From NCBI GenBank assembly GCA_002898395.1, contig BEHE01000007.1, positions 9,048-73,047 on the forward strand: a DNA stretch of 64,000 nucleotides. The letters are read 5' to 3'. A program made the position numbers and the translations under genes. This document shows positions 20,832 through 61,446 of this stretch, piece after piece; the stretch's first letter is position 1, and each line of letters opens with the position of its first letter. Source of the stretch: Candidatus Calditenuaceae archaeon HR02 (GTDB taxonomy: Archaea > Thermoproteota > Nitrososphaeria_A > Caldarchaeales > Calditenuaceae). A model generated the notes under the pieces. That model had not been told where the DNA came from, ran no database searches, and worked only from the letters and a program-made list of their open reading frames with translations.

Positions 20832-21282
20832 TTACGTAGAACCACCAATCAATATGATATAAACGTGTCTAAACCACGCCAGCTTAAAAGCAGCATTATA
20901 GAAAGTGGTGGCGAGGTGTGTGGAGCGTTTTAGCGTAGGCCACGCCCGACCGTCTAAGCGGCTCGGGCGATTGGGAGTGGCGCGCTGAGGGCGTCCGGCC
21001 TAAGCCTCCGCCCGTACACGCCCACCCCATCAACCCCCTCTTCTAGGGGAGCCCTCGTCGGGGCCCAAGGCCCGTTGCCAGGCCCTATAGGCCCCGATTG
21101 GCCGCCTATTTTTGGGAGTGGCTTCGGGCTTAGATGCTTTCAGCCCTTATCCACAGGGGCGCGGCTGCCCGGCGCCGCCCTGTAGGACGACCGGTAAACC
21201 GTTGGCCCCGGCCCTCCGTTCCTCTCGTACTAGGAGGACCTTTCCCTCAGGCGGCCCGCACCCCCAGTAGGTAGAAACCGAT

Positions 21283-21325
<43 letters not shown>

Positions 21326-21959
21326 AGGCGAGCAGCCTCACCCTTGGCCCCTGCTGCGAGGCCAGGAGGGGAAGAGCCGACATCGAGGTACCAAGCCGCG
21401 GGGTCGATGGGGACTCTCGCCCGCGACGAGCCTGTTATCCCTGGGGTAACTTTTCTGTCACCACCGGCCCCCACTGGTAGGAGCCGATGGATCGCTAGGC
21501 CCGGGTTTCCCCTCAGGACCCCTTGCGTTCGAGGGTCCTGTCAGGCCGGCTTATGCCCTTGCACTCTACAGCGGGTTTCTGTCCCGCCTGAGCCGACCTT
21601 TGGGCTCCTCCGATATCTTTTCGGAGGAGTGCCGCCCCAGCCAAACTGCCCACCAGCCGTTGTCCCAGGGTCAGGCCCTGGTTAGCGGGGCAGTCCGGAG
21701 TAGCCGGTGTTACATTGGCGCCTCCCCAGGCCCCCGGAGAGACCTGGATCGACGGCTCCCGGCTACGCTATGTACTCCAGACCACTCCGCAGCAACTGGC
21801 TGCAGTAAAGCTCCACAGGGTCTTCTCTCCCCACTGGGGGTTCGTGGACTGTTCGCCCACGTTATGTGGGTTCACGGGGCTCCGGGCCGGGACAGTGGGG
21901 CCCTCGTTGATCCATTCATGCACGTCGGAACTCACCCGACAAGGCATTTGGCTACCTTA

Positions 21960-22700
21960 AGCATGCCCGACCGAATGGTCGGGGTTGGACCATATCATCA
22001 CCCATTAAGGGTGCGCGGCGTATGGTCTCTGAGGATCCCGCCCTCAACTAATATTTTCCGGAGTTTCTCCGCCTTTTCAGGGTGTCTGAAACCCACCTTC
22101 TCCGAGAACTTCTCCACATTGTCCCACCCCATCACGGTTAGCCTCCATTGATAGTGTCTTCCCCATGTGTGGGGTTTTTTACGGTTATAGGTAGATGATA
22201 TCTCGTTTAACTGCAGTATGTGGTGTGCCTCTACAAGCACTTTTTTCGCGACCATGTCGATGCTGACGTAGGGATAGCGAAACTTCTTCATGCCCTGAGT
22301 CTGAACATCTATCCCGCAGTATCCTTCACTGTCGAACAGCCCCTTCACGACGTCGATATCGTGTTTAAACAATTCCGGTATCTGCGCGCTGACGAGCTTC
22401 CGCCCCTTCGGGAACCCGATCCTCAACAAGAAGTCATGTACCTTCCTAACATTCGTGGAGACTATGTAGAGGCTTTTACTTGCGCGCCGTATGTTTGGCT
22501 TGACTCCGAAAAGCTCTTCAACCGTGGCGGCGATAAAGTTGGCGAACTCGAAGTTAGGGTCTCGGCAGAAGACCGTGTAATAGTTGCCGTAGACGCCTCC
22601 GTCTCCCAGCATCACTCCAATGAGGTAGGCTAGACTCATCTGCTGTCCGCTGACCTTCAGCCTTTATAGCTGTTTCACAGGGCGGTTTCCTGCGGGTCGG
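21960..22700 (-). mobile_element. rRNA intron 1 (archaeal BHB-type, domain IV, just 5' of the GGTAGC...AAGGTAGCC block) carrying a homing-endonuclease ORF
   Basis: rRNA sequence conservation breaks between about 22700 and 21960 and resumes with CTTAAGGTAGCC. The segment contains a full LAGLIDADG ORF. Boundaries are approximate. Confidence 0.6.
21998..22639 (-). CDS. LAGLIDADG homing endonuclease (double-motif, intron-encoded)
   Basis: Motif 1 LAYLIGVMLGDGG and motif 2 VVKGLFDSEGY. 213 aa, the size of I-DmoI/I-PorI-class enzymes. Confidence 0.85.
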   Translation of the reverse strand: MSLAYLIGVMLGDGGVYGNYYTVFCRDPNFEFANFIAATVEELFGVKPNIRRASKSLYIVSTNVRKVHDFLLRIGFPKGRKLVSAQIPELFKHDIDVVKGLFDSEGYCGIDVQTQGMKKFRYPYVSIDMVAKKVLVEAHHILQLNEISSTYNRKKPHTWGRHYQWRLTVMGWDNVEKFSEKVGFRHPEKAEKLRKILVEGGILRDHTPRTLNG

Positions 22701-23444
22701 ATTCACGGTGCTACGGGATTGTTACCCGCGCGGGGTACCCATAGCCTCCTCCTTCCCCGCATACAGCCGCGTTTAACGACCCCCTTGAACTTGAGGGTCA
22801 GAGTTACCCCCGGCGCTAACCGGCCCTTATCCCGGTTGGACCCGGGGTTCAGGTACCGGTGCTGGCCAGGATTGAGGAGCCGTTCAAAGCCTTTCGGCCT
22901 AGCGGCTCCCTATGTTTTTATTAAACAGTCAGGACCCCCTTGTCACTGCGACCTACCAACCCACCCTCACCGGGCAGGAAGGCAGGCACCCCTTCTCCCG
23001 AAGTTACGGGGCCAATTTGCCGAGTTCCCTAGCCCGGAGTAACCCCAGACGCCTTGGCCTTCTCAGCCAGGGGCACCTGTGTCGGATCTAGGTACGGTCT
23101 CTCGGGATCGTTCCGGGCTCCCTTTTCACTGGCCCCAGGGTCCAGCCGAAGCGGCCTTAAGGCCGCCCCATCCCTCCATTCACCTGGTTCTCGCCATTAC
23201 GGCTCTCCCCAGGCTTGGGAGGTTAGACAGGGCTACGGCCCTGCTCGGCCTTACCTGAGGCGTCGGGAGCCCGGCTTGCGTCGCCGCACCTACCCGAGAG
23301 GCACCGGAATCTTAACCGGTTTCCCCTTCGGCCTACCCGGTTAAGGTCGGCCTTAGGACCGGCTTACTCCCGGCTGACGACGCATTGCCGGGAAACCCGT
23401 GCCCTTCCGGCGGAGGGGATATGGGGAGAGGTCGCAGGACCGTG

Positions 23445-24005
23445 TTCTCCCAAAAAGCGAACAGGTCAAGAAGGAAGGTATTGTAAACTCTGATTGAAAG
23501 TGTCCCGAATTTTGAACGTGAACTCCGTAAGCCCCACCTAACTGAAGGCTTACGGAACTGTGATAATGGTATGTTTAACAAGTTAGACCAGTATTCCTCC
23601 AGTTCCTTCACCCTGTCCGTCCACTCGTCCTTGCGGAGCTTGATTTGTAGCCTAGGCCTTAGCTCGCTTCTCGCTACTCCGAGTGTTTCGAGGAAGTTTA
23701 CCATAGCGAGTAGCTTGTTAGGATCGCTGTTGACGAATTCGAACCTCGTCTTCACAGTTTTAGGTCTTTTAGTGCCTTCACCAGCATAAAGACCAAGAAC
23801 GTACCGAATAGCACCGCTGAGACGTAACGGCGAATCTTCATTGCGCCTACGCGGCCGTTCCCGTACTTGAACCGAAGAGTCACCTTATCGTCCTCTACGG
23901 TCTTCTTAAGTACTTTGGTGTGGTCTAACGTCTCCGGAATGAGCTCTGCTAGGTCTACGTAGCTCATCCTTTAAGTAGAGTTACGTGACAACAAGTAGTT
24001 AAAAG
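23445..24005 (-). mobile_element. rRNA intron 2 (domain III region), about 560 nt, with a decayed endonuclease ORF
   Basis: AT-richer insertion between exon sequences GAGAGGTGCAGGGCCGTC (5') and GGTCCTGCGACCTCTCCCC (3'), which are mutually complementary and form a helix around the junction. The flanking exon sequence aligns to conserved domain III blocks. Confidence 0.5.
23455..23967 (-). pseudogene. Degenerate, frame-split homing-endonuclease remnant inside intron 2
   Basis: Two adjacent minus-strand ORFs in different frames (23752-23967 and 23333-23755). The second has a segment, DPNKLLAMVNFLETLGVARSEL, that resembles the second LAGLIDADG helix region of I-DmoI (NKALLEIVSRWLNNLGV). No intact first motif is present. 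Confidence 0.35.
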
Positions 24006-25198
24006 TTTGACGGCCCTGCACCTCTCTTTCCCACCCCTCTTCGCTGTCTACTACCACCGGGATCTACATTAGCGGCCGGTCCACGGGACCTCACGGCCCC
24101 GCTTCTACCCAACCGCTACGCCCCCCTACCCCCACCCACGCAGCGCGTGAGTGAGCCCGGGTTTCGGCGGCCCGCTTAGACCCGTCAATTTTCGGGGCCC
24201 CCATCCTCGGCGGGTAAGCTGTTACGCACTTCTTAGCTGATGGCTGCTTCTAAGCCTACAGCCCCGCTGTCTCAGGATGGAGACGCCCTTTGGTTTGTCA
24301 CTTAGCGGGCACTTAGGGGCCTTAACCCGCGGTCTGGGTTGTTCCCCTCTCGGTCCCGGAGCTTACCCCCGGTACCCCACTCCTGGGATCTACGGTGCCC
24401 GCGGATTCGGAGTTCGAAAGGAGAGTGGAGCCTCATCGGCCCCTTGCTCCCCCATCGGTGCTCTACCCCGCGGGCAGCCTCCCCCAGGGCTGTCCTGCGA
24501 GACACTTCGGGGGGAACTAGCTATCACCGGGCTCGATTAGCTTTTAACCCCTAGCCCCAGGTCAGGGGACCGATTTGCACATCAAGACCCCTATTCGGGC
24601 CTCCACCAGGGTTTCCCCTGGCTTCGCCCTGCCCAGGGCTAGATCGCCCGGTTTCTAGCCTCACGGGCGTGACTACAGGCCCTTTCAGACCCCGCCCCTC
24701 GCCGGAGCACACTCCGGCTGCGGGCATGTCGGTTTCCCCACGCCTACGGGCTTTCAGCCCTTAGGCTCGCCACACCCGTGAACTCCCCGGCCCGTGATTC
24801 AAGACGGAGTGCACGACCCTGGGATTGTCCCCACTCGCCCCTCACCGGGGCTTCGCAGGGAATGCCCTTTCGGGCCGTGCTCGTCTGTTACCAGCCGGTT
24901 TCAGGCGCTTTTCACCCCCCTCTCGGGGTACTTTTCACCTTTGGCTCACGCTACTGGTCCACTATCGGTCTTGGGACGTATTTAGCCTTGGAGGCCAGTG
25001 GCCCCCAACTTCCCGCACCATATCCGAGGTGCGGTACTCGGGGACCGGAGCATCGCCCCTCCAGCCTTCGCCTACGGGGCTATCACCCTCTCTGGCCCCC
25101 CATTCCAGGGGAGTTCGGCTCAGCATTCAGGGCGGGCCTCCGGCCCCATAACCCCACACTCCCCCCGAGTTAACCTCGGGGGGTTCGGTTTGGGCTGC

Positions 25199-25232
<34 letters not shown>

Positions 25233-25589
25233 TTTGATTTCTTTTCCTCCCCCTACTTGGATGCTTCCGTTCGGGGGGTTCCCGATCCCGGACTGAAGGC
25301 CCGGGAACGAGGTGGCCGAAGCCACCCCAGGAGATCCCATTAGGAGATCCCCGGATCAACGCCCGCCTGCGGCTACCCGGGGCTTATCGCAGCTTGCCAC
25401 GTCCTTCTTCGGCGCCCAAGCCGAGGCATCCACCGGCTGGCGTACCCCCGCTTAGTGCCAAGGCGCGGCCTACTTCGCCACGCTCCACACACCTCTGCGG
25501 CGCGGTCATAGGAAAGTATTAGCCTCCTCCCGCATTCATGCCCCTCAGGACTTCATGGCTGAGGAGCAAACATCTCCGTGCGCAATAGA

Positions 25590-50013: not shown

Positions 50014-51339
50014 CTACTGGATCTTATCGCTAACGCCTGCTAGGGATAGGAACTCCTTACTCAGCCGGGTGAGGGAGTAGAGTTCAACTCCAGCCTCGCG
50101 GAGGAGCTTCTCAGCACCCTCATTCCTATCAAAGATCACAAAATATTTGTCTATCACTCCCCCCTCCTCCCGAACAGCCTTTACACACTCAAGCGCACTA
50201 TTACCGGTGGTGACGACGTCGTCAACGCCCACATAGAGTGTCCCGGGCTTGACTACCCCCTCTACCTTTCTCTCAAGCCCGTGAGCCTTTCTCTCCATCC
50301 TAACGTAGACAAGCCCCACGCCGAGTCTGTCTGCGACAATGCTCGCTAGAGGTATTCCAGCCGTGGCTGTCGTCGCAATCTCGAAGCCAGACCTGCCAAC
50401 ACGTCTAGATACCGCCCCGGTCATGAGCCTGGCTATGAGCGACCTTGAGACTGGGTCAGAGTATAGCGACCTACAGTCTATGTAGATTCGGCTCCACCCT
50501 CCACTCGAGAGTTGGACCGGCTTCTCATATATGTTCAAGACTCCCTTCGTCCTGATTATCGCCCTACTGGCGAGGATGAACTCCCTCTGTCGCGATAGGG
50601 TCTCTGCGATGTTTGCAGCCTCCGCTACCGGGTCCTCTGCAAGTATTATCGTCCTCCCCACATTGATCAGTAATCTCTCACCACCGGCCCTGATCATGGG
50701 CATCGGATCCCCTCCTTGGGCGCCAAATCCCGGTGAAAGGATTATTGCCTCCTCACCAACTCTCTGCCTGATCTCTGCTATCTCCCCTTCATCGAGGCTT
50801 GACGAGAGCCCAACCACGAACCCATCCACCCCCGCCTCAACCCCTTCCTCAATAAACCTCCAGTAGAGTGGCTCACCATCCACTCTGCGACGGAAGTATT
50901 TCTCGCCGTATCTGCCCGATGGATGGGCGAGTAGGAATACGCCTAGCCCATGCTCATGCGCCTCATCCACCACCTCTCCGACGTTGCCGAAGAGGGGGTT
51001 GAGGGTAAAGGCATCGTAGCCCAGCCTCGCAATGGTGTTTACGCCGGCCTTGGCTGATTCGCCGATGTCCCCGAGCTTACAGTCCAGAATAGTTAAAAGG
51101 CTCAGTTTCCTCGCCAGCCCGGTTATGGCCCTGTGCCCATCCTCTCCGAGGCCGCGCAAGTGATTCTCGTTCAGCTTAACGGCTGAGCAAAACCTGCCGA
51201 GCTGCTGGATCCTATCGAGACAGAATCTAAGCCTTAGGCTTGGGTCGTGGTAGACCCACGGCGGCGGGTCGAGTCCAAGACATAGAATGCTGCCAGAGAT
51301 CTCGACGACCCTGTCATACCTCTCCTTGAGCAAAGACAC
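50014..51339 (-). CDS. pyrF-pyrE: Bifunctional OMP decarboxylase (N-terminal) :: orotate phosphoribosyltransferase (C-terminal) fusion
   Basis: The N-terminal 230 aa carry ODCase motifs (LDCKLGDIG, LSPGFGAQGGDP, VGRTIILAEDPVAEA). The C-terminal 200 aa carry the OPRTase PRPP motif (LYVGVDDVVTTGNSALE). It is one continuous 441-codon ORF. Confidence 0.7.
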   Translation of the reverse strand: MSLLKERYDRVVEISGSILCLGLDPPPWVYHDPSLRLRFCLDRIQQLGRFCSAVKLNENHLRGLGEDGHRAITGLARKLSLLTILDCKLGDIGESAKAGVNTIARLGYDAFTLNPLFGNVGEVVDEAHEHGLGVFLLAHPSGRYGEKYFRRRVDGEPLYWRFIEEGVEAGVDGFVVGLSSSLDEGEIAEIRQRVGEEAIILSPGFGAQGGDPMPMIRAGGERLLINVGRTIILAEDPVAEAANIAETLSRQREFILASRAIIRTKGVLNIYEKPVQLSSGGWSRIYIDCRSLYSDPVSRSLIARLMTGAVSRRVGRSGFEIATTATAGIPLASIVADRLGVGLVYVRMERKAHGLERKVEGVVKPGTLYVGVDDVVTTGNSALECVKAVREEGGVIDKYFVIFDRNEGAEKLLREAGVELYSLTRLSKEFLSLAGVSDKIQ

Positions 51340-51450
51340 CTGCTAGCGCCTCGTATCCCCTCTTAAAAACGATTTCCATCCCATCGAAAGCACAATCGTC
51401 TTAAGAAGTGTACAGCCTCTCCAGGCACCGACCCCCTAAATTCTTATCAA

Positions 51451-52455
51451 TTGGCTAGCGCCACACTACTTGACTTGCCTCTGATAAGGATGGAGGGGGT
51501 TGCTCCGGTTTTCGTGGACCGCGGGTCTCGGATCCTCTTTGACGCAGCGGAGGGGCAGGGGTTGAGGTGTCTGAGCCACGCACACATGGACCATGCAGGC
51601 TCGCCTACAGAGCTCAATGTGATGACAGGCGAGACCCATAAAATCTTCGCCTCCCGTAAAAAATACTATAGGAGATTCATTGAATCCCCCCTCGGGGTCA
51701 AGATAAAACTACCACAAGGCACCCTCCTCACGGCCCTCAACTCGGGGCACATGCTCGGCTCAAGCATGTTTAAACTAGAGGCCGATGGTCTCTCCATACT
51801 CTATACTGGCGACATGAACATCTATGACAACATCCTACAGAGGGGTGCAGAACAGCACGAAGCCGACGTCCTTGTCATCGAGGCAACCTATGGCTCTCCC
51901 ATCTACAAGTTCCCTGACAGGGAGGGAATCTATTACGAGATGATCAAGTGGGTGAGAGAGACCCTCGCGCGGGGCGATATACCCGCCCTCAAGGTCTACT
52001 CCGCCGGCAAGGCTCAAGAGATTATCGCCCTCGTTAACAAGACGCTAAGTGTGCCCGTCCTAACCACGCCGGAGATCTACAAGGTCTCGATGGTTTATAG
52101 GAGCAAGTTCAGGTGGATGGACTTCTTGAGGGCCGGGACCCAGGAGGGCTATGAAGCCGCTAGGAACGGCGCTGTCTATGTCTCTGCGCGGAGGGACGTC
52201 TCCCAGCTCGCAAACAGGCGTGTCAGATGGGCGCTAGCCACAGGCTGGGTGCTGACCAGTAGACAAGAGGGTTTCGACGCCTACTTCCCACTCTCCGCCC
52301 ACTCAGATTTCCACGGCCTAGTCTCATACGCGAAAAATTCGGATTACAAGATAGTTCTGACGATCTATGGCTTCTCCTCAACCCTTGCTAGGCATCTGAG
52401 ACGTCTCGGCATCAACGCCTACTCGCTGGAGGAAAAATTGTGCATTAAGTTCTAA
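51451..52455 (+). CDS. Metallo-beta-lactamase-fold beta-CASP-like nuclease
   Basis: HAHMDH (the HxHxDH motif), EATYG (beta-CASP motif A-like), and a trailing AHSDFHGL. Confidence 0.6.
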   Translation: MASATLLDLPLIRMEGVAPVFVDRGSRILFDAAEGQGLRCLSHAHMDHAGSPTELNVMTGETHKIFASRKKYYRRFIESPLGVKIKLPQGTLLTALNSGHMLGSSMFKLEADGLSILYTGDMNIYDNILQRGAEQHEADVLVIEATYGSPIYKFPDREGIYYEMIKWVRETLARGDIPALKVYSAGKAQEIIALVNKTLSVPVLTTPEIYKVSMVYRSKFRWMDFLRAGTQEGYEAARNGAVYVSARRDVSQLANRRVRWALATGWVLTSRQEGFDAYFPLSAHSDFHGLVSYAKNSDYKIVLTIYGFSSTLARHLRRLGINAYSLEEKLCIKF

Positions 52456-52685: not shown

Positions 52686-52937
52686 GTGGTCAACGTCAGA
52701 ATAGTTTACTGCGTGCCATGCGGACACCTGCCTAGGGCTATGGAGCTTGCAAACCACCTCCTACAGACGTTCGGCATGGAGTACAACAAACGCTTTTCAG
52801 TAACCCTCGACACATCTGACGGCGGAACCTTTGAGGTTTACATCGATGACGTGAAAGTGTATTCGAGGAAGGAGCAGGGAGGTAGATTCCCCACTGCGGA
52901 AGAGATCGTTAAAGAGGTCAGGAATAGGGCTAGGTAG
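52686..52937 (+). CDS. Rdx/SelW-like small redox protein (CxxC)
   Basis: 83 aa with a CVPCGH motif near the N-terminus, typical of the SelW/SelT/Rdx fold. Confidence 0.45.
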   Translation: MVNVRIVYCVPCGHLPRAMELANHLLQTFGMEYNKRFSVTLDTSDGGTFEVYIDDVKVYSRKEQGGRFPTAEEIVKEVRNRAR

Positions 52938-53454
52938 ACCGCTGTACTTCTCTCTCCAGAAACTCGATAGCCAGTTTAACGTGCTCATCAGGTTTAACCC
53001 CATCGATTATTTTGACTATCCTACCCTCAGGAGATATTATGAAGGTCTTCCGCTTCGCGGTCTTGAATAGGCTATTGTACGCGTCGAAGAGACGTGATAT
53101 CTCGCCGTTCTTGTCACTGAGCAGTGGGAATGTTAGGTTGTATTTCTGTGCGAATTTCTCGTGGCTCTTAATGTCGTCGGTGCTTATACCATAGACTTCA
53201 GCCCCACATCTTGTCAAAACACCCATGTTATCTCTAAAGCTACAGGCCTCTGATGTACACCCAGGCGTATTGTCTTTTGGGTAGAAGTAGAGTATTATAT
53301 AGCGGTTCTTTCCGAGCCTCGTGCCAAGCCTGAACTCTCCTCTTGTTGAGGGGAGAGAGAAGTCAGGGCAAATGTCACCCACTTCCATATCCAACAATAC
53401 CCTACTCGATGAGCGAGTGGTGGTGTCCCCCACAGCTGCAAGTCGACTGCTCAT
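52930..53454 (-). CDS. bcp: Peroxiredoxin, Bcp-type (thiol peroxidase)
   Basis: YFYPKDNTPGCTSEACSFRD peroxidatic-Cys motif. Confidence 0.8.
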   Translation of the reverse strand: MSSRLAAVGDTTTRSSSRVLLDMEVGDICPDFSLPSTRGEFRLGTRLGKNRYIILYFYPKDNTPGCTSEACSFRDNMGVLTRCGAEVYGISTDDIKSHEKFAQKYNLTFPLLSDKNGEISRLFDAYNSLFKTAKRKTFIISPEGRIVKIIDGVKPDEHVKLAIEFLEREVQRST

Positions 53455-53996: not shown

Positions 53997-54251
53997 GTGA
54001 AAGAGGCTCCATCGGCTGTCTCGATACTTGAGCATGAGCTGGTCCCGAAGCACGAGATTATGAGCCCAGAAGAGGTCGAAGAGCTATTAGGCAGATATAG
54101 GATAACTCTGAACGAGCTTCCAAGGATACTTGCCAGCGACCCAGTGGTACGCGAGATAGGAGCCAAGCCCGGCGACGTCCTTAGAATACATAGAAGATCA
54201 CTCACCGCCGGACTCTCATACTACTATAGAGTGGTGGTGAGGGAGGAGTGA
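53997..54251 (+). CDS. rpoH: DNA-directed RNA polymerase subunit H (Rpb5 homolog)
   Basis: 84 aa directly upstream of rpoB with a stop/start overlap. The C-terminal RpoH fold motif is [11 protein letters not shown]. Confidence 0.8.
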
Positions 54252-57200
54252 AGGCCAAGCCTGCCTCTGAGCAGCCAATTCTAACGAGCGAAGACTTGAT
54301 GAAGGTCGCCGAGGCCTATATCGACGACGCCGGCCTAATCAACCATCACCTAATGTCGTACGATTACTTCGTCAAGGAGGGTCTCAAGAACCTAATAATG
54401 AGTATGAGCCCGGTCGAGATTAAGGCGAGAGGTAAGGCAGAGCTAAAGTTCGAGAGTGTCGAGATAGGATCTCCGAGGATCGTCGAGATTGATGGGATGG
54501 TCAGGGAGGATGTAACGCCAATGGAGTGTAGGCTAAGAAACCTAACCTACTCGGCCCCAATCTACGTCAAGATGAGCCTATATGTTGATGACAAGCCGGT
54601 AGTTGTTGCTGAGCGGGTCCTTATCGGCTCGATCCCCATCATGGTTAAGTCCTCTATCTGTCCGCTGAGCAGGATGACTCCTGAAGAGCTGGCGGCTATA
54701 GGTGAAGATCCGTTAGACCCGGGTGGCTACTTCATCATAAACGGTTCAGAGAGGGTTATAGTGGCGATAGAGGATCTCTCACCTAACAAGGTCCTCGTGA
54801 CTGTGAAGGATCAGAAGGAGAATCCCCAGTACTCGGCGATGCTTCTCTCATCCTCGCAGGGTAGGATGAGTAAGGTTGAGGTCACCTATAAGCCCGGAGG
54901 CCCCATAAAGGTCTTTTTCTCGAGGATCTACAAGGGTATTCCCTTAATAGTAATGTTGAGGGCTCTCGGGCTGACTAAGGATAGCGAGATAGTTAATCTA
55001 ATCTCGAATAATTCCGCGATACAAGAACTTCTCGAGCCATCCTTCAGGGAGGCTGAGGGTGTTGAGACGGCGGATGACGCCCTAGTGTACATAGGGAATA
55101 GGATAGCTTTTGGCTATGCCGAGGAGTATAGAAAACAGCGGGCTGAGCAGATGATAGACAACATATTCATGCTCCACGTAGGGACGACCCCCGACGCGAG
55201 ATACAAGAAAGGGATACTCCTGTGCGATATAGTCGGTAAGCTACTGGAGACAAGCGTGGGCCTCAGGAAGCCCTCGGACAAGGACCACTATGGGAACAAG
55301 AGGATAAAGCTTGAGAATCCTTTGCTCACAGAACTATATAGAATGGCGCTCACCAAGCTGATCCGAGACGTCAAGTATCAACTTGAGAAGAGCATGGCAT
55401 CACGCTACCCGATCACGATTTCACCATTCGTTAAGCCCAGCATAGTTAATGACGTTGTTGTCCACGCATTTGCGACTGGGAACTGGCCGGGTGGAAGGGT
55501 TGGCGTAACACAGCTGTTGAATAGAACCAATTATCTCGCCACCATCAGCCATTTGAGGAGGGTTCAGTCGCCTCTGAGTCGTAGCCAGGCACACTTCGAG
55601 GCAAGGGATCTGCATGGGACGCACTGGGGTAGGATATGCCCTGTTGAGACGCCTGAGGGTGCGAATTCCGGGCTTGTCAAAAACTTTGCTCTCGGCGCCG
55701 AAGTTACAGTCCCACTCTCGCAGCAGGACAGGATCGAGTTGAAGAGAAGGCTCGTCGACCTTGGCATGGTCGGCGTGTTTGTAGCTCTTGACGAGCGGAG
55801 GCGCGGACGGAAGAGGACATACGGCGCAAAGGTCTACCTCGACAACGAGCTGATAGGCTACCACCCAGACGGTCGGGCGCTTGTCCGCGAGCTTAGAGCC
55901 CTCCGCAGAAAGGGTGAGATAAGCCCCGCCGTCAATATCTGTCTAAACGAGTACCCACACATCCAAGAAGTCGAGATTTACACCGACGAAGGTAGGGTAA
56001 GGAGGCCGTTAATAGTGGTGGAGGATGGTGTGCCCAGCATCTCGAGGGCGATGATAGACTCGCTGTCTAATGGGACATTCAGGTTCAGGGACCTAGTCTC
56101 AATCGGTGCTGTAGAGTTCTTAGACGCGTCTGAGGAGGAGAACGTCTTGGTCGCCATCTCTCCGGAAAGCTTGACACCTAATCACAACTATCTAGATGTC
56201 TCGCCTCTCCTAGTAATGGGTGCAGTAGCCTCAATCATACCATACAGTAACCATAACCAGTCGCCGAGAAACGTCTACGAGGCCTCAATGGCTAAACAGG
56301 CACTAGGAGTTCCCCTAACGAGCCTAAACCTGAGGACAGACTCTAGGCTCCACCTACTGGTCTACCCCCAGAAGCCTCTAGTGTATACGCGCTTCATGAA
56401 GCGGCTCTCACTAACAGAGAGGCCAATCGGCCAAAACCTGGTCGTTGCTGTCTTGACGGGCTATGGATACAACATGGAGGACGCTGTTGTCCTTAACAAG
56501 TCATCTATTGAGCGCGGCGTGGGCTACAGCATCAGCTATAGGACCTATGAGGTGGAGGCTAAACAATACATTGGCGGAGAGAAGGATAGGCTTGGCATAC
56601 CTGAACCGAGTGTGAGGGGCTACAGGGGCGAGCAGTGCTACCGCGCCCTTGACTCCGATGGGCTTGCCTTCCCCGAGTCAGAGGTTGTGGGAGGGATGGC
56701 TATCGTCGGAATGGTCAGCCCACCCAGGTTTATGGAAGAATACATGAGAGCCCCTGCCAGGGAGATGGTCTGGAGAGACTCGTCTGAGGTCGTTAAGCCT
56801 ACAGAGGCCGGTGTGGTTGATACCATCTTTGTTACTAAGACGCTCGAAGAGACCACTCTGGTCAAAGCCAGGATCAGAACTGACTGCTTTGCAGAAATTG
56901 GGGACAAATTCGCGTCAAGGCATGGTCAGAAGGGTGTTGTAGGCATGCTCTTTCCGCAGGCCGACATGCCCTACACAGCCAGCGGCATCGTACCCGACCT
57001 GATAATTAATCCACACGCATTCCCATCGAGAATGACTGTCGGACAGCTGATTGAGAGCCTCGCTGGGAAACTCGCAGCGCTGAAGGGTGAGGAGGTCGAC
57101 GGCTCACCATTCATAGGCAAACCCCTCGAGGAGATAGAGGCTGAGCTAGAGGCTCTCGGATTTAAGGGGGCTGGAACTGAGGTAATGTACGACGGCCTTA

Positions 57201-57643
57201 CAGGCAGAAAGTATGAGGTTGAGATATTCGTAGGAGTGGTGTATTATCAGAGACTACACCATCTGGTCCGCGATAAGATACACGCTAGGTCTAGGGGCCA
57301 GGTCCAGATACTGACGAGGCAGCCTACTGAGGGTCGCTCCCGCGGTGGAGGACTGAAGTTTGGGGAGATGGAGAGAGACTGCCTAATAGCTTACGGGGCA
57401 AGCTACCTACTCCTCGACAGGCTGCTCGAGCAGAGCGACAAGTATTCCGCATACTTCTGCGAGAAGTGTGGTCTACCGGCATACTACGACCTTAAGCAGA
57501 ACCAGCTTATCTGCCCAGTGCACGGTAAGGACTTCTCAGGCGTCCAGGTCTCTATGTCGTACGCATTCTTCCTCCTCCTGAACGAGCTCTTAGCCATGTG
57601 TATCTATCCAAGGCTCATCTTCGAGGAGGTGGGTGGGAGCTGA
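54248..57643 (+). CDS. rpoB: DNA-directed RNA polymerase subunit B (unsplit B'/B'')
   Basis: 1131 aa with the conserved Rpb2 blocks, including [13 protein letters not shown], the PSRMT(V)GQ region and a C-terminal Zn ribbon (CEKCG...CPVHG). Confidence 0.9.
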
Positions 57644-60600
57644 GGGGAGTAATATCGGCGATTAAGTTCGGCATACTTCCGCCAAACCTAATCAGGAGTA
57701 TGAGTGTTGTAGAGGTACAGAGCCCAGACACCTATGACGAGGACGGGATGCCGATACCGACAGGCGTCATGGACCCAATGCTGGGTACTCTAGAGCCTGG
57801 ACAGAGGTGCAAGACCTGCGGAAACACCTACATCTCTTGCCCGGGGCATTTTGGGCACATAGAACTTGCAGTCCCCGTTATACACATAGGATTCGTCAAG
57901 ATTATTCATGAACTGCTGAGGTGTACGTGCAGGTCCTGCGGTAGACTACTGCTAAGCCAGAGCGACATCGAAGAGACTAGGGCTAGACTAAGGCAGCTGA
58001 AGCAGGAGGGGAGGATGTATAGACACCTCTTCTACAAGGTTAAGCAAAAGGCAATGGCCACCCAGACCTGCCCACACTGTGGTGAGAAACAGTTTAAGAT
58101 AGAGCTGGAGAAGCCTTCCACTTTTGTCGAATCAACTCCGCAGGGGGCGGTCAGGCTTACAGCAGGCTCCGTGAGGCAGAGGCTTGAGAGGATACCGGAC
58201 TCAGACCTTGAACTACTCGACATCGACCCCCAGTCGTCACGTCCGGAGTGGATGGTCCTAACAGTCCTCCCCGTTCCCCCTGTCTATGTAAGACCCTCAA
58301 TAACGCTTGAGAGCAATTACCGCTCTGAGGACGACCTAACCCACAAGCTTGTCGACATTCTGAGGGTAAATCAAAGGCTGAAGGAAAGCATAGCTGCGGC
58401 GGCACCCTCACCCGTCATAGCCGAGCTCTCAGACCTACTACAATATCACGTAACAACCTACATCAATAACGAGACGATAGGAGTCTCACCGGCCCAGCAT
58501 AGGTCGGGCAGAATACTGAAGACGCTCGCCCAGAGGCTTAAGGGTAAGGAGGGGCGCTTCAGGCTTAACCTTTCTGGGAAACGCGTCGACTTCTCCGCGC
58601 GCACGGTCATCTCACCCGACCCCCTCATAGACTTCGACGAGGTGGGTGTCCCACTCGAGATAGCTATGCAGCTCACCGTGCCGGAAGTCGTCACTCCATG
58701 GAATAAGGAGAAGCTGAAGGAGATGGTGAGGAACGGGCCTGACAAGTATCCAGGAGCAAAATACGTGATAAAGCCTGACAGGAAGATGATTCGTTTGAAG
58801 AATGTTCAGAACTTGGATGAGGTTGCTGAGAGCCTTGAGGAAGGGTGGATTGTGGAGAGACATCTAAGAGACGGCGACATTGTACTCTTCAATAGGCAGC
58901 CGAGCCTACACCGAGTCTCCATTATGGCTCACCGCGTCAGAGTACTCCCCTACAAGACCTTCAGGCTCAACTTGGCGGTATGCACACCCTATAACGCCGA
59001 CTTCGACGGCGACGAGATGAACCTCCATGTCCCGCAGAGTGAGGAAGCTCAGGCGGAGGCCAGACTCCTACTACAGGTCCAGCGCAATATAATCTCCGCC
59101 AGATATGGCGCACCGATTATAGGTGCGATCAGAGACTTCTTGACCTCGCTCTACCTGTTGACAAAGGACGGCACATATGTTGATAAGCAGACGCTAGGAT
59201 ACCTCCTCTCAGCCATAGGCTATAAGGGTGAGCTACCTCCACCTGAGAAGACAGATCCTCAGCCGCTATGGAGTGGTAAGCAGGTGTTCAGCCTACTCCT
59301 GCCACCCACCCTATCACACAGGGTTCAGTCCAACTTCAGCTCAGATACACAGGTAGTAATAGAGAGGGGGAAACTTGTCCAGGGATTTATTGATAAGGCT
59401 ATAGTGGGTGTAGAAAAGGCCAACAGCGTACTGCACAGAATATTCAGGGAATACGGCTACGAAGAGGCTGCAAGGTTCCTCAACGGAGTTATCAGGCTCG
59501 CAAACACATACTTAAACCTCCGCGGCTTCACATTCGGCATAGAGAGTCTAACGGTGCCCGAGGAAGTATACAGACAGGTCCAATCATACCTCCATAAGAT
59601 GGAGAAGGAGTTCCAGCAACTAAAATCCGACTATGAGAAGGGGAGACTAGAGGTTAAGCCCGGTGAGACTCCTGAGAAGGCTTTTGAGTCCGAGATACTC
59701 GAGCTACTCTCCAGGACTAGGGACGAGATTGGCGGCTTCGTTAGGAAGTTCGTCTCCACAGACAACCCACTAGTCGTCATGGCGAGGACCGGTGCGAGGG
59801 GAAGCTCCCTGAACATAGACCAGATGATTGCAATCGTGGGTCAACAGGCAGTTAGGAGGGAGAGGCCTAGCAGGGGATTTACCGATAGGGTCTTAACATT
59901 CTTCGACAGGGGCGACCTATCTCCTCGTGCCAGGGGCTTCGTCTACAACCCATTCATCAAGGGCTTTGACCCGATAGAGTTCTTCTTCCACCTGATGGGC
60001 GGCAGGGATGGGCTTGTCGACACTGCCGTCAGGACGCAGCAGAGCGGCTACATGCAGCGGAGGCTCATAAATGCTCTCGAATCACTCTACGTAGAGTTTG
60101 ACGGCTCGGTCAGGATGTCAGACACTAAGAAGATAGTTCAATTCCTTTACGGCGAGGATGGTGTTGACCCTGGCAAGAGCGACCACGGTAAGCCGTTTAT
60201 CCCAGCCAATATAATCTCGCAAGTCCTGATGGAGGAGCGGGACACAGGAAGCCCGGCTGCACCAGATGATGTCGAGGCTGTTGCCAAGAAGTATGAAGGG
60301 CTAATGCCCTTGTCAGCTATTCAGGAGTTATCGGACGCCTGTCTCAAACTCAAGGTCCCGAGGGGTGCTGTCGAGAGGGTTTTCGCGACTGCCTACCGTG
60401 TATATCTCCAGAGCATGGTTGAGGCGGGAGACCCTGTCGGCATTATCGCCGCCCAATCCCTAGGGGAGCCTGGAACCCAGCTCACTCTCAGGACCTTCCA
60501 CTTCGCTGGTGTTAGGGAGCAGAGCATTCTCGTAGGACTCCCCCGGCTTATCGAGATAATCGACGCCAGGAGAGCCCCCTCCACACCTATGATGTATATC

Positions 60601-61446
60601 TATCTTAAACCTCCTTACAATCAGGACTCTAAGCTCGCCAGGAAGATCGCCAGCAGGCTCCAATACATAAGTGTCGGAGACGTTGTAGATGAGATTAGGA
60701 TAGAGGCGCGAACCGGCAACATAATACTCATGCTCGACGAGGAAGCCTTGAGGGAGCTGTCCGTGACGAGGGAGGAGTTGAGCCAGGCCTTGAAGCCTTA
60801 CAGGCCCAAGTTCATCGAGTCTAAACGGGCTGTCTCCCTAACTGTTAAGGAGGTTGAACATGATTCTCTAGAGCTTTTGAAGACCAGGATACTTAACACG
60901 AGGCTGAGGGGTGTGAAGAGGATAACAAAGGCTGTGGTCAGGAAGAAGAGTGGTGAATACCTCATACAGACAGAGGGCTCAAACCTCAAGGAGGTCATGT
61001 CCTTGCCTGAAGTTGATTTCAGGAGGGTTAGGACGAATGACATTCACGAGGTGGCCTCTGTCCTCGGGGTTGAGGCTGCGAGGCAGCTCATAGTTGAGGA
61101 GGCTCAACAGCTCTTGAGGGAGCAGGGGCTCGACGTAGACGTCAGACACCTGCTATTACTGGCAGACGCCATGACCCTGGATGGAAGGGTTAGGCAGGTT
61201 GGGAGGCATGGTGTCGTGAGGCTGAAGTCGAGCGTCCTTGCGAGGGCTGCCTTCGAGATTAGCTTCCAGACACTGGTTGAGGCTGCGGCCTCTGGCGAGG
61301 TCGACCACCTGCAGGGAAACATTGAGAGGATATTAATAGGCAGGGAGGTTCCTGTCGGTACTGGCAGGGTGGACCTCCTAATGAGATATAGCGACCTCCT
61401 GCCGAACCAGAATAGCAGCTCCGGCTCAGATGCAGGTGAGAAGTAA
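57598..61446 (+). CDS. rpoA: DNA-directed RNA polymerase subunit A, with the A' and A'' portions fused in one ORF
   Basis: N-terminal Zn-binding clamp ([17 protein letters not shown]) and catalytic [10 protein letters not shown]. The bridge-helix region is [23 protein letters not shown]. The A''-type trigger loop [21 protein letters not shown] follows in the same frame with no stop. The listed GTG start overlaps rpoB by 46 nt; the true start is uncertain. Confidence 0.85.
   Translation: [1282 protein letters not shown]

Follow-up and report, generated by a model that had tools for sequence, protein, structure and literature searches.

Fusion of pyrE and pyrF, the genes for orotate phosphoribosyltransferase (OPRTase) and orotidine 5'-phosphate decarboxylase (ODCase), is a recurrent event and a classic textbook phenomenon. 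The bifunctional uridine 5'-monophosphate (UMP) synthases of metazoans, plants and fungi carry the two enzymes in the order OPRT-OMPDC, and the UMP synthase of Leishmania donovani (PDB 3qw4) carries them in the opposite order, OMPDC-OPRT. PMC2705460, citing Makiuchi et al., reports the OMPDC-OPRT order for oomycetes, diatoms and some cyanobacteria, and describes the OMPDC-OPRT and the plant/metazoan OPRT-OMPDC fusions as independent evolutionary events. For the bacterial bifunctional ODCase/OPRTase, NCBIfam holds an equivalog model, NF004034 (PRK05500). According to PMC5803862, citing French et al. 2011, OPRT dimers and OMPDC dimers build up the Leishmania enzyme as a dimer of dimers, with ligand-controlled oligomerization. 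Human UMPS forms dimers and condensates and switches between dimers and larger inactive assemblies (PMC9978035). Here we describe a PyrF::PyrE protein with the decarboxylase at the N-terminus, encoded in a 64-kb stretch of DNA (64,000 nucleotides (nt), hereafter the window) from Candidatus Calditenuaceae archaeon HR02, an aigarchaeon that its database lineage places in the Nitrososphaerota, order Caldarchaeales. It represents a genuine archaeal variant, with a probably independent origin, of a type of bifunctional enzyme that is already known. We found no description of an archaeal or aigarchaeal PyrF-PyrE fusion in the searchable literature, and one may still have been published.

The initial annotation of the window held that this domain order is otherwise known from kinetoplastids, which proved too narrow. 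Besides the organisms and the bacterial family named above, one fused cluster carries the name Anaerolineaceae/Chloroflexota, and 61 of the best 150 among 7214 matches in a HMMER search of 1.84 billion cluster representatives were fusions in which the decarboxylase (F) precedes the phosphoribosyltransferase (E). The F-E architecture as such is common and abundant in metagenomes. The HR02 protein resembles the Leishmania enzyme in its two component enzymes, in their N-to-C order and in length (441 versus 453 amino acids (aa)), but the identity between them is only 26-27%. With the bacterial NF004034 enzymes of cyanobacteria and Chloroflexota it shares a prokaryotic host, the domain order and the predicted chemistry. 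It is predicted to be bifunctional for the same two steps as the metazoan, plant and fungal UMP synthases, which have the opposite domain order. The closest relatives of its two halves are the stand-alone archaeal PyrF (Caldarchaeum) and PyrE (PDB 2yzk, Desulfurococcaceae and DPANN), which have the same active-site residues but are separate polypeptides.

The pyrF::pyrE reading frame and its domains

On the minus strand of the window, the gene forms one uninterrupted open reading frame (ORF) that begins with GTG and meets no stop on the way, as read from the ORF list and from the sequence directly. The start is backed by the relative L001, which has an ATG at exactly that position. The public protein P0001 (NCBI name Candidatus Calditenuaceae archaeon HR02) is 100% identical to the window protein. 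The ORF is laid out as follows:

50014-51339, minus strand: complete pyrF::pyrE ORF, 441 codons plus stop (GTG start at 51337-51339, stop at 50014-50016)
50590-51339, minus strand: OMP decarboxylase (PyrF) domain, residues 1-250, TIM barrel (Pfam, TIGR02127, Foldseek)
50017-50589, minus strand: orotate phosphoribosyltransferase (PyrE) domain, residues 251-441, type I phosphoribosyltransferase (PRT) fold (NCBIfam, PDB)

Both Pfam domains scored above their gathering cut-offs. PF00215 (OMPdecase) matched residues 19-243 with 62.9 bits against a cut-off of 27, and PF00156 (Pribosyltran) matched residues 321-411 with 28.4 bits against a cut-off of 26.3. The proposal of the initial annotation that one continuous 441-codon ORF encodes ODCase and then OPRTase was therefore borne out. 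TIGR02127 (pyrF_sub2) matched residues 12-242 with 78.9 bits, under its cut-off of 110.6, and the NCBIfam pyrE models matched at residues 258-428, NF001729 with 109 bits (cut-off 245) and TIGR00336 with 101.6 bits (cut-off 106.8). The A. pernix OPRTase structure 2yzk matched the E half at E 4.5e-22. When each half was searched separately, the boundary fell at residues 250/251, close to nt 50590. The junction had earlier been placed at nt 50640-50700, about 50-100 nt away and still inside the decarboxylase. The 64-kb window contains one F domain and one E domain, with no further copy of either. These results confirm that the window protein is a genuine PyrF::PyrE fusion whose N-terminal part is the decarboxylase.

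Relationship of the two halves to archaeal genes

A fusion in this order could have been made within Archaea, or it could be the same fusion as that of the bacterial, cyanobacterial and kinetoplastid OMPDC-OPRT proteins, brought into Aigarchaeota by horizontal transfer and strongly diverged after it. The identical domain order would fit such a transfer. So would the top PDB sequence match of the window protein, which is the Leishmania UMP synthase in a single stretch covering residues 16-425 (E 1.6e-35), and the fact that the decarboxylase half scores best on TIGR02127, 'subfamily 2', the type used in bacterial fusions. The halves themselves, however, are closest to archaeal stand-alone genes. 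Against the F half, the stand-alone pyrF of Ca. Caldarchaeum (261 aa) shows 41-44% identity and ~200 bits and a Micrarchaeia pyrF 40% identity, whereas the halves of non-archaeal F-E proteins reach at most 88 bits with the F half and 83 bits with the E half of the query. Stand-alone archaeal pyrE from Desulfurococcaceae, A. pernix, Aenigmatarchaeota and L006 share 40-49% identity with the E half, a range that widens to 37-49% once the structural comparison is included, and the matches at 44-49% in particular count against a transferred fusion.

A domain-wise phylogeny, which the initial annotation had suggested as a check, placed each half with archaeal stand-alone genes. The trees were built by neighbor-joining (NJ) with 200 bootstraps on 175-249 columns. 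The F tree united all fused proteins of ~440 aa and three Caldarchaeum stand-alone pyrF in one clade in 183/200 bootstraps (92%). In the E tree, the fused clade was sister to six stand-alone archaeal pyrE of 276-286 aa together with P0152 and P0153 in 187/200 bootstraps (94%); P0152 (544 aa) and P0153 (549 aa) are themselves F-E fusions, encoded on archaeal contigs. The bacterial and eukaryotic F-E proteins fell elsewhere in both trees, and the two halves of the window protein group with archaeal stand-alone genes and not with the kinetoplastid lineage.

Family profiles drew the same line. On NF004034 the window protein scored 84.2 bits in two stretches, the best of which covered only the E half, and the curated cut-off is 656. 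In contrast, ten non-archaeal F-E proteins scored 240-474 bits on this model, each in one end-to-end stretch. The same ten proteins passed TIGR02127 at 180-267 bits, a model whose cut-off the window protein does not reach.

Predicted structure and domain junction

An AlphaFold2 monomer model was built on an alignment of 23 fused homologues with 42-100% identity (alignment A1), and its confidence values were pLDDT 91.3 and pTM 0.90. The sole poorly defined segment was the mobile loop of OPRTase (residues 351-353), where a low pLDDT is expected because the loop is mobile. In the model the final ODCase helix is linked to the first OPRTase helix without a separate linker, through a single helix:

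50551-50631, minus strand: junction, one predicted alpha-helix, residues 237-263 (AlphaFold2 model)

Foldseek comparisons gave close fits for the single domains. The ODCase domain aligned with Leishmania 3qw3 at TMt 0.84 and a root-mean-square deviation (rmsd) of 2.6 Å and with M. thermautotrophicus ODCase at TMt ~0.82, and the OPRTase domain aligned with Aeropyrum pernix 2yzk at TMt 0.88, rmsd 2.2 Å and 37% identity. In the full-length comparison with Leishmania 3qw4 both domains aligned, yet the TM was only 0.49-0.51 and the rmsd 11-13 Å. Since the single domains fit at 2.2-2.6 Å but the whole chain fits poorly, the predicted domain arrangement, and with it the predicted interdomain packing, differs from that of 3qw4 (monomer model versus crystal). 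The junction is gap-free, with similar residues across it, throughout the aigarchaeal clade and in P0152 and P0153. Leishmania and several bacterial F-E proteins have 10-17 extra residues there, about 10 in the Leishmania UMP synthase relative to the window protein.

Origin of the fusion

The nearest relatives of the halves, the NJ trees, the family profile scores and the predicted domain arrangement led us to an archaeal fusion, independent in origin from the bacterial/eukaryotic F-E lineage, as the best-supported reading, and we consider it likely. The suggestion of the initial annotation that this may be an independent fusion event finds support here. The same evidence makes a horizontally transferred copy of the shared fusion improbable.

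Several observations weigh against an independent origin or blur its history. The sample for the NJ trees was gathered by similarity to the query, and the bootstraps of the deep backbone are below 20%. The difference in domain orientation comes from comparing a predicted monomer with a crystal tetramer. That the junction is gap-free does not prove a separate fusion event, because in a wider census other F-E proteins had junctions between 8 residues shorter and 71 residues longer than that of the query, with several near 0; the similar junction length of some bacterial-type F-E proteins would suit a shared fusion, and we count the gap-free junction as supporting evidence. The stand-alone Caldarchaeum pyrF nests inside the fused F clade, with weak internal support, and the history may have included fission at a later stage or repeated fusion. 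For P0152 and P0153, descent from the same fusion and a parallel origin are both possible. The single-copy count given above covers the 64-kb window.

Fusion history within Archaea

The statement that pyrE and pyrF are normally separate in archaea held for the other archaeal loci examined (L006, L007, L008, L013, L015 and L016). Their arrangements, where notable, and those of two further Caldarchaeum loci are:

L006: pyrE then pyrF, adjacent
L016: pyrF and pyrE, divergent
L013: pyrF, a gene of unknown function, a PRTase gene
L015: pyrF beside pyrBI and pyrC, a PRTase gene further on
L008 852-2039 (plus strand), L009 3817-5004 and L010 1667-2854: 395-aa PyrI::PyrE of Ca. Caldarchaeum

The 395-aa protein of Ca. 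Caldarchaeum joins PyrI, the regulatory chain of aspartate carbamoyltransferase (residues 6-143), to an OPRTase (residues 183-364), and the OPRTase part passes the TIGR00336 cut-off with 107.7 bits. Its gene lies upstream of the 261-aa pyrF and overlaps it by 4 nt. We know of no prior description of a PyrI::PyrE fusion. As a source of the E half of the window protein it was ruled out, being of a different OPRTase type with 28% identity over 76 residues. It is plausible that the PyrF::PyrE fusion predated the family split and that the E half was then lost or replaced in Caldarchaeum; it is also possible that the Caldarchaeum pyrF is sister to the fused clade.

A conserved C-terminal extension of ~95 aa without a Pfam match follows the OPRTase in L006 (3707-4552, plus strand), P0031, P0170, P0152 and P0153. 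DPANN-type stand-alone PyrE proteins and the 544- and 549-aa F-E fusions have it, but the aigarchaeal fusion lacks it.

Active sites and predicted activities

All motifs quoted in the initial annotation were found in the protein, and they are listed here with the flexible catalytic loop of the OPRTase:

51061-51087, minus strand: ODCase catalytic motif LDCKLGDIG, residues 85-93 (register of PDB match and alignment A1)
50704-50733, minus strand: ODCase phosphate-gripper loop PGFGAQGGDP, residues 203-212 (alignment A1)
50257-50304, minus strand: OPRTase flexible catalytic loop VRMERKAHGLERKVEG, residues 346-361 (alignment A1 and model)
50188-50232, minus strand: PRPP-binding motif VGVDDVVTTGNSALE, residues 370-384 (alignment A1; inside PF00156, 321-411)

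In the ODCase half, D86, K88 and D91 align with D70, K72 and D75 in the M. thermautotrophicus enzyme, under a register that pairs query residues 68-248 with chain residues 52-222. The catalytic set D24, K55, D86, K88, D91, S141, Q208 and R229 is invariant in A1. So are G204, G206, Q208, G209 and G210 of the phosphate-gripper loop together with R229, which sits after the loop in NVGRT (residues 226-230). In the OPRTase half, the invariant catalytic set consists of R347, K351, D373, D374, T377, D404 and R405. Within the catalytic loop R347, K351, G354, E360 and G361 do not vary, and within the motif for phosphoribosyl pyrophosphate (PRPP), which is of the VDD-x-x-TTG type, V372, D373, D374, T377 and G379 do not vary. 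The invariant OPRTase residues comprise the lysine of the mobile loop and the acidic motif that binds PRPP, and the roles of the catalytic residues are well established in both enzyme families. On these residues, the window protein is predicted to perform both reactions, the conversion of orotate and PRPP to orotidine 5'-phosphate (OMP) and of OMP to UMP.

One of the halves could instead be non-catalytic and serve regulation or scaffolding, leaving a single activity, for which the PRT-fold regulators PyrR and GfcR provide a precedent. The public labels might be read in this way, as every source name seen for public copies names one enzyme only ('orotate phosphoribosyltransferase' or 'orotidine 5'-phosphate decarboxylase'). 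Neither half reaches any NCBIfam equivalog cut-off, and there are weak matches to GfcR and PurR models. However, the catalytic and substrate-binding residues of both enzymes are invariant over 42-100% identity, TIGR00336 is missed only narrowly, both folds are modeled with high confidence, and the window holds no other F or E copy. The invariance of both active sites led us to reject a degenerate domain, and we consider a protein with one activity very improbable.

Conservation of the fusion in relatives

The same ~440-aa two-domain protein was found in about 25 protein clusters (P0002-P0024 and P0151, from 88% down to 42% identity) drawn from NCBI, JGI, ENA and Logan assemblies. A search of genome contigs with this protein alone yielded 7 loci, all of close relatives. 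The fusion is also present in five species-representative genomes (L001-L005). In L001-L003 it gave a single gap-free tblastn alignment of 439-441 residues with 88-90% identity, and from IleRS to RpoB these loci run collinear with the window. L004 and L005, at 49-51% identity, retain the divergently transcribed beta-CASP neighbor. The named carriers include Ca. Calditenuaceae, Ca. Terraquivivens tikiterensis and Ca. T. yellowstonensis, the latter two of the family Wolframiiraptoraceae. The fusion has been maintained over substantial divergence and is no assembly artefact. The question of a stop or frameshift at the junction, which the initial annotation wanted put to the reads, is answered by independent assemblies, among them the three gap-free genomes and the clusters, in which the ORF is intact. 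The survey of relatives that it also asked for came out in favor of the fusion, as they carry both domains in one protein. That a sequencing or assembly error deleted a stop or a frameshift between adjacent genes has a probability close to nil, for although the source is a metagenome-assembled genome, the identical architecture recurs in about 25 clusters drawn from four sources of data and, without junction gaps, in the genomes of five other species, and residues are conserved across the junction.

Upstream region and genomic neighborhood

The window and L001-L003 share an unchanged TTTTAAGAGG, which ends ~20 nt ahead of the start codon. The candidate element at this place is:

51359-51369, minus strand: candidate archaeal TATA-like promoter element TTTTTAAGAGG (from conservation)

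If this element acts as a TATA-like promoter, the mRNA would be leaderless or have a very short leader. A scan for bacterial-type promoters and terminators was uninformative, as the host is archaeal. The genes on this side of pyrF::pyrE are:

51451-52455, plus strand: 334-aa protein matching beta-CASP metallo-beta-lactamase nucleases of the CPSF73, Integrator-11 and FttA type (PDB, E 4e-13)
52686-52937, plus strand: Rdx-family (SelW-like) small redox protein
52930-53454, minus strand: peroxiredoxin (AhpC/TSA), convergent with the Rdx gene, 8-nt overlap
54248-57643: RpoB, one ORF
57598-61446, plus strand: single 1282-aa ORF with RNA polymerase Rpb1 domains 1-5

The 334-aa beta-CASP-like protein had no Pfam match at E <= 1e-4. 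Its gene is divergent from pyrF::pyrE, and L004 and L005 keep this arrangement at identities as low as 44%. The Rdx/peroxiredoxin pair is kept in L001-L003. The largest RNA polymerase subunit appears to be unsplit, rather than encoded by A' and A'' genes, and RpoB is likewise a single ORF.

Elsewhere the window holds an archaeal large-subunit (LSU) ribosomal RNA and an RNase P. The LSU rRNA match (20952-25457, minus strand) spans 4506 nt against a model of 2987 nt, which corresponds to ~1.5 kb of inserted sequence. Inside it lies an ORF (21998-22639, minus strand) for a 213-aa protein with LAGLIDADG-like motifs (LIGVMLGDGG ... FDSEGY), which suggests one or more LSU rRNA introns carrying a homing endonuclease. 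ARAGORN found no tRNA genes in the 64 kb, either because they are really absent or because intron-containing archaeal tRNAs were missed.

Proposed function and implications

In the mechanism that we propose, the C-terminal OPRTase would make OMP from orotate and PRPP, and the N-terminal ODCase would decarboxylate OMP to UMP. The fusion would have arisen within Archaea from archaeal-type pyrF and pyrE and would have been inherited vertically in aigarchaeal lineages, namely the Calditenuaceae and the Terraquivivens genus of the Wolframiiraptoraceae, and it would be independent of the fusion of bacteria, kinetoplastids and stramenopiles. According to the model, one continuous helix would weld the domains, in place of a flexible linker. 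Each parent enzyme is an obligate homodimer whose active sites borrow residues from the partner subunit. Because of this, the fusion is expected to assemble through both dimer interfaces, as a dimer or a dimer of dimers. Fusion would fix a 1:1 stoichiometry and the proximity of both activities, and its possible benefits may include co-expression, stability and local hand-over of OMP. The channeling of OMP that the initial annotation had raised is conjecture; the sequence neither requires nor supports it. A bolder proposal would make the protein a third, independently evolved and Archaea-specific class of UMP synthase, with a rigid-helix weld, a geometry unlike that of the kinetoplastid enzyme, a distinct oligomer and a possible role in direct OMP hand-over or added thermostability, in Aigarchaeota that rewire their PyrE fusions lineage by lineage. 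We put this forward tentatively and with some doubt. If it were true, PyrF::PyrE in Calditenuaceae and Terraquivivens and PyrI::PyrE in Caldarchaeum would be cases of lineage-specific rewiring.

For genome interpretation, the one-enzyme labels of the public copies could make automated pathway reconstructions wrongly score pyrimidine synthesis as incomplete in uncultured hot-spring archaea. To a specialist the finding is tidy and not surprising, since the F-E order is abundant and pyrE/pyrF fusion is recurrent. A UMP synthase of a thermophile that is welded by a helix without a linker would be a handy object for asking whether fusion brings channeling or only stability and stoichiometry. Together with the PyrI::PyrE protein of Caldarchaeum, the PyrF::PyrE protein makes a small natural experiment, in which one enzyme has entered alternative fusions within one order. 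In evolutionary terms, it adds an archaeal case to the recurrent fusion of pyrE and pyrF and leaves the current understanding of these fusions in place.

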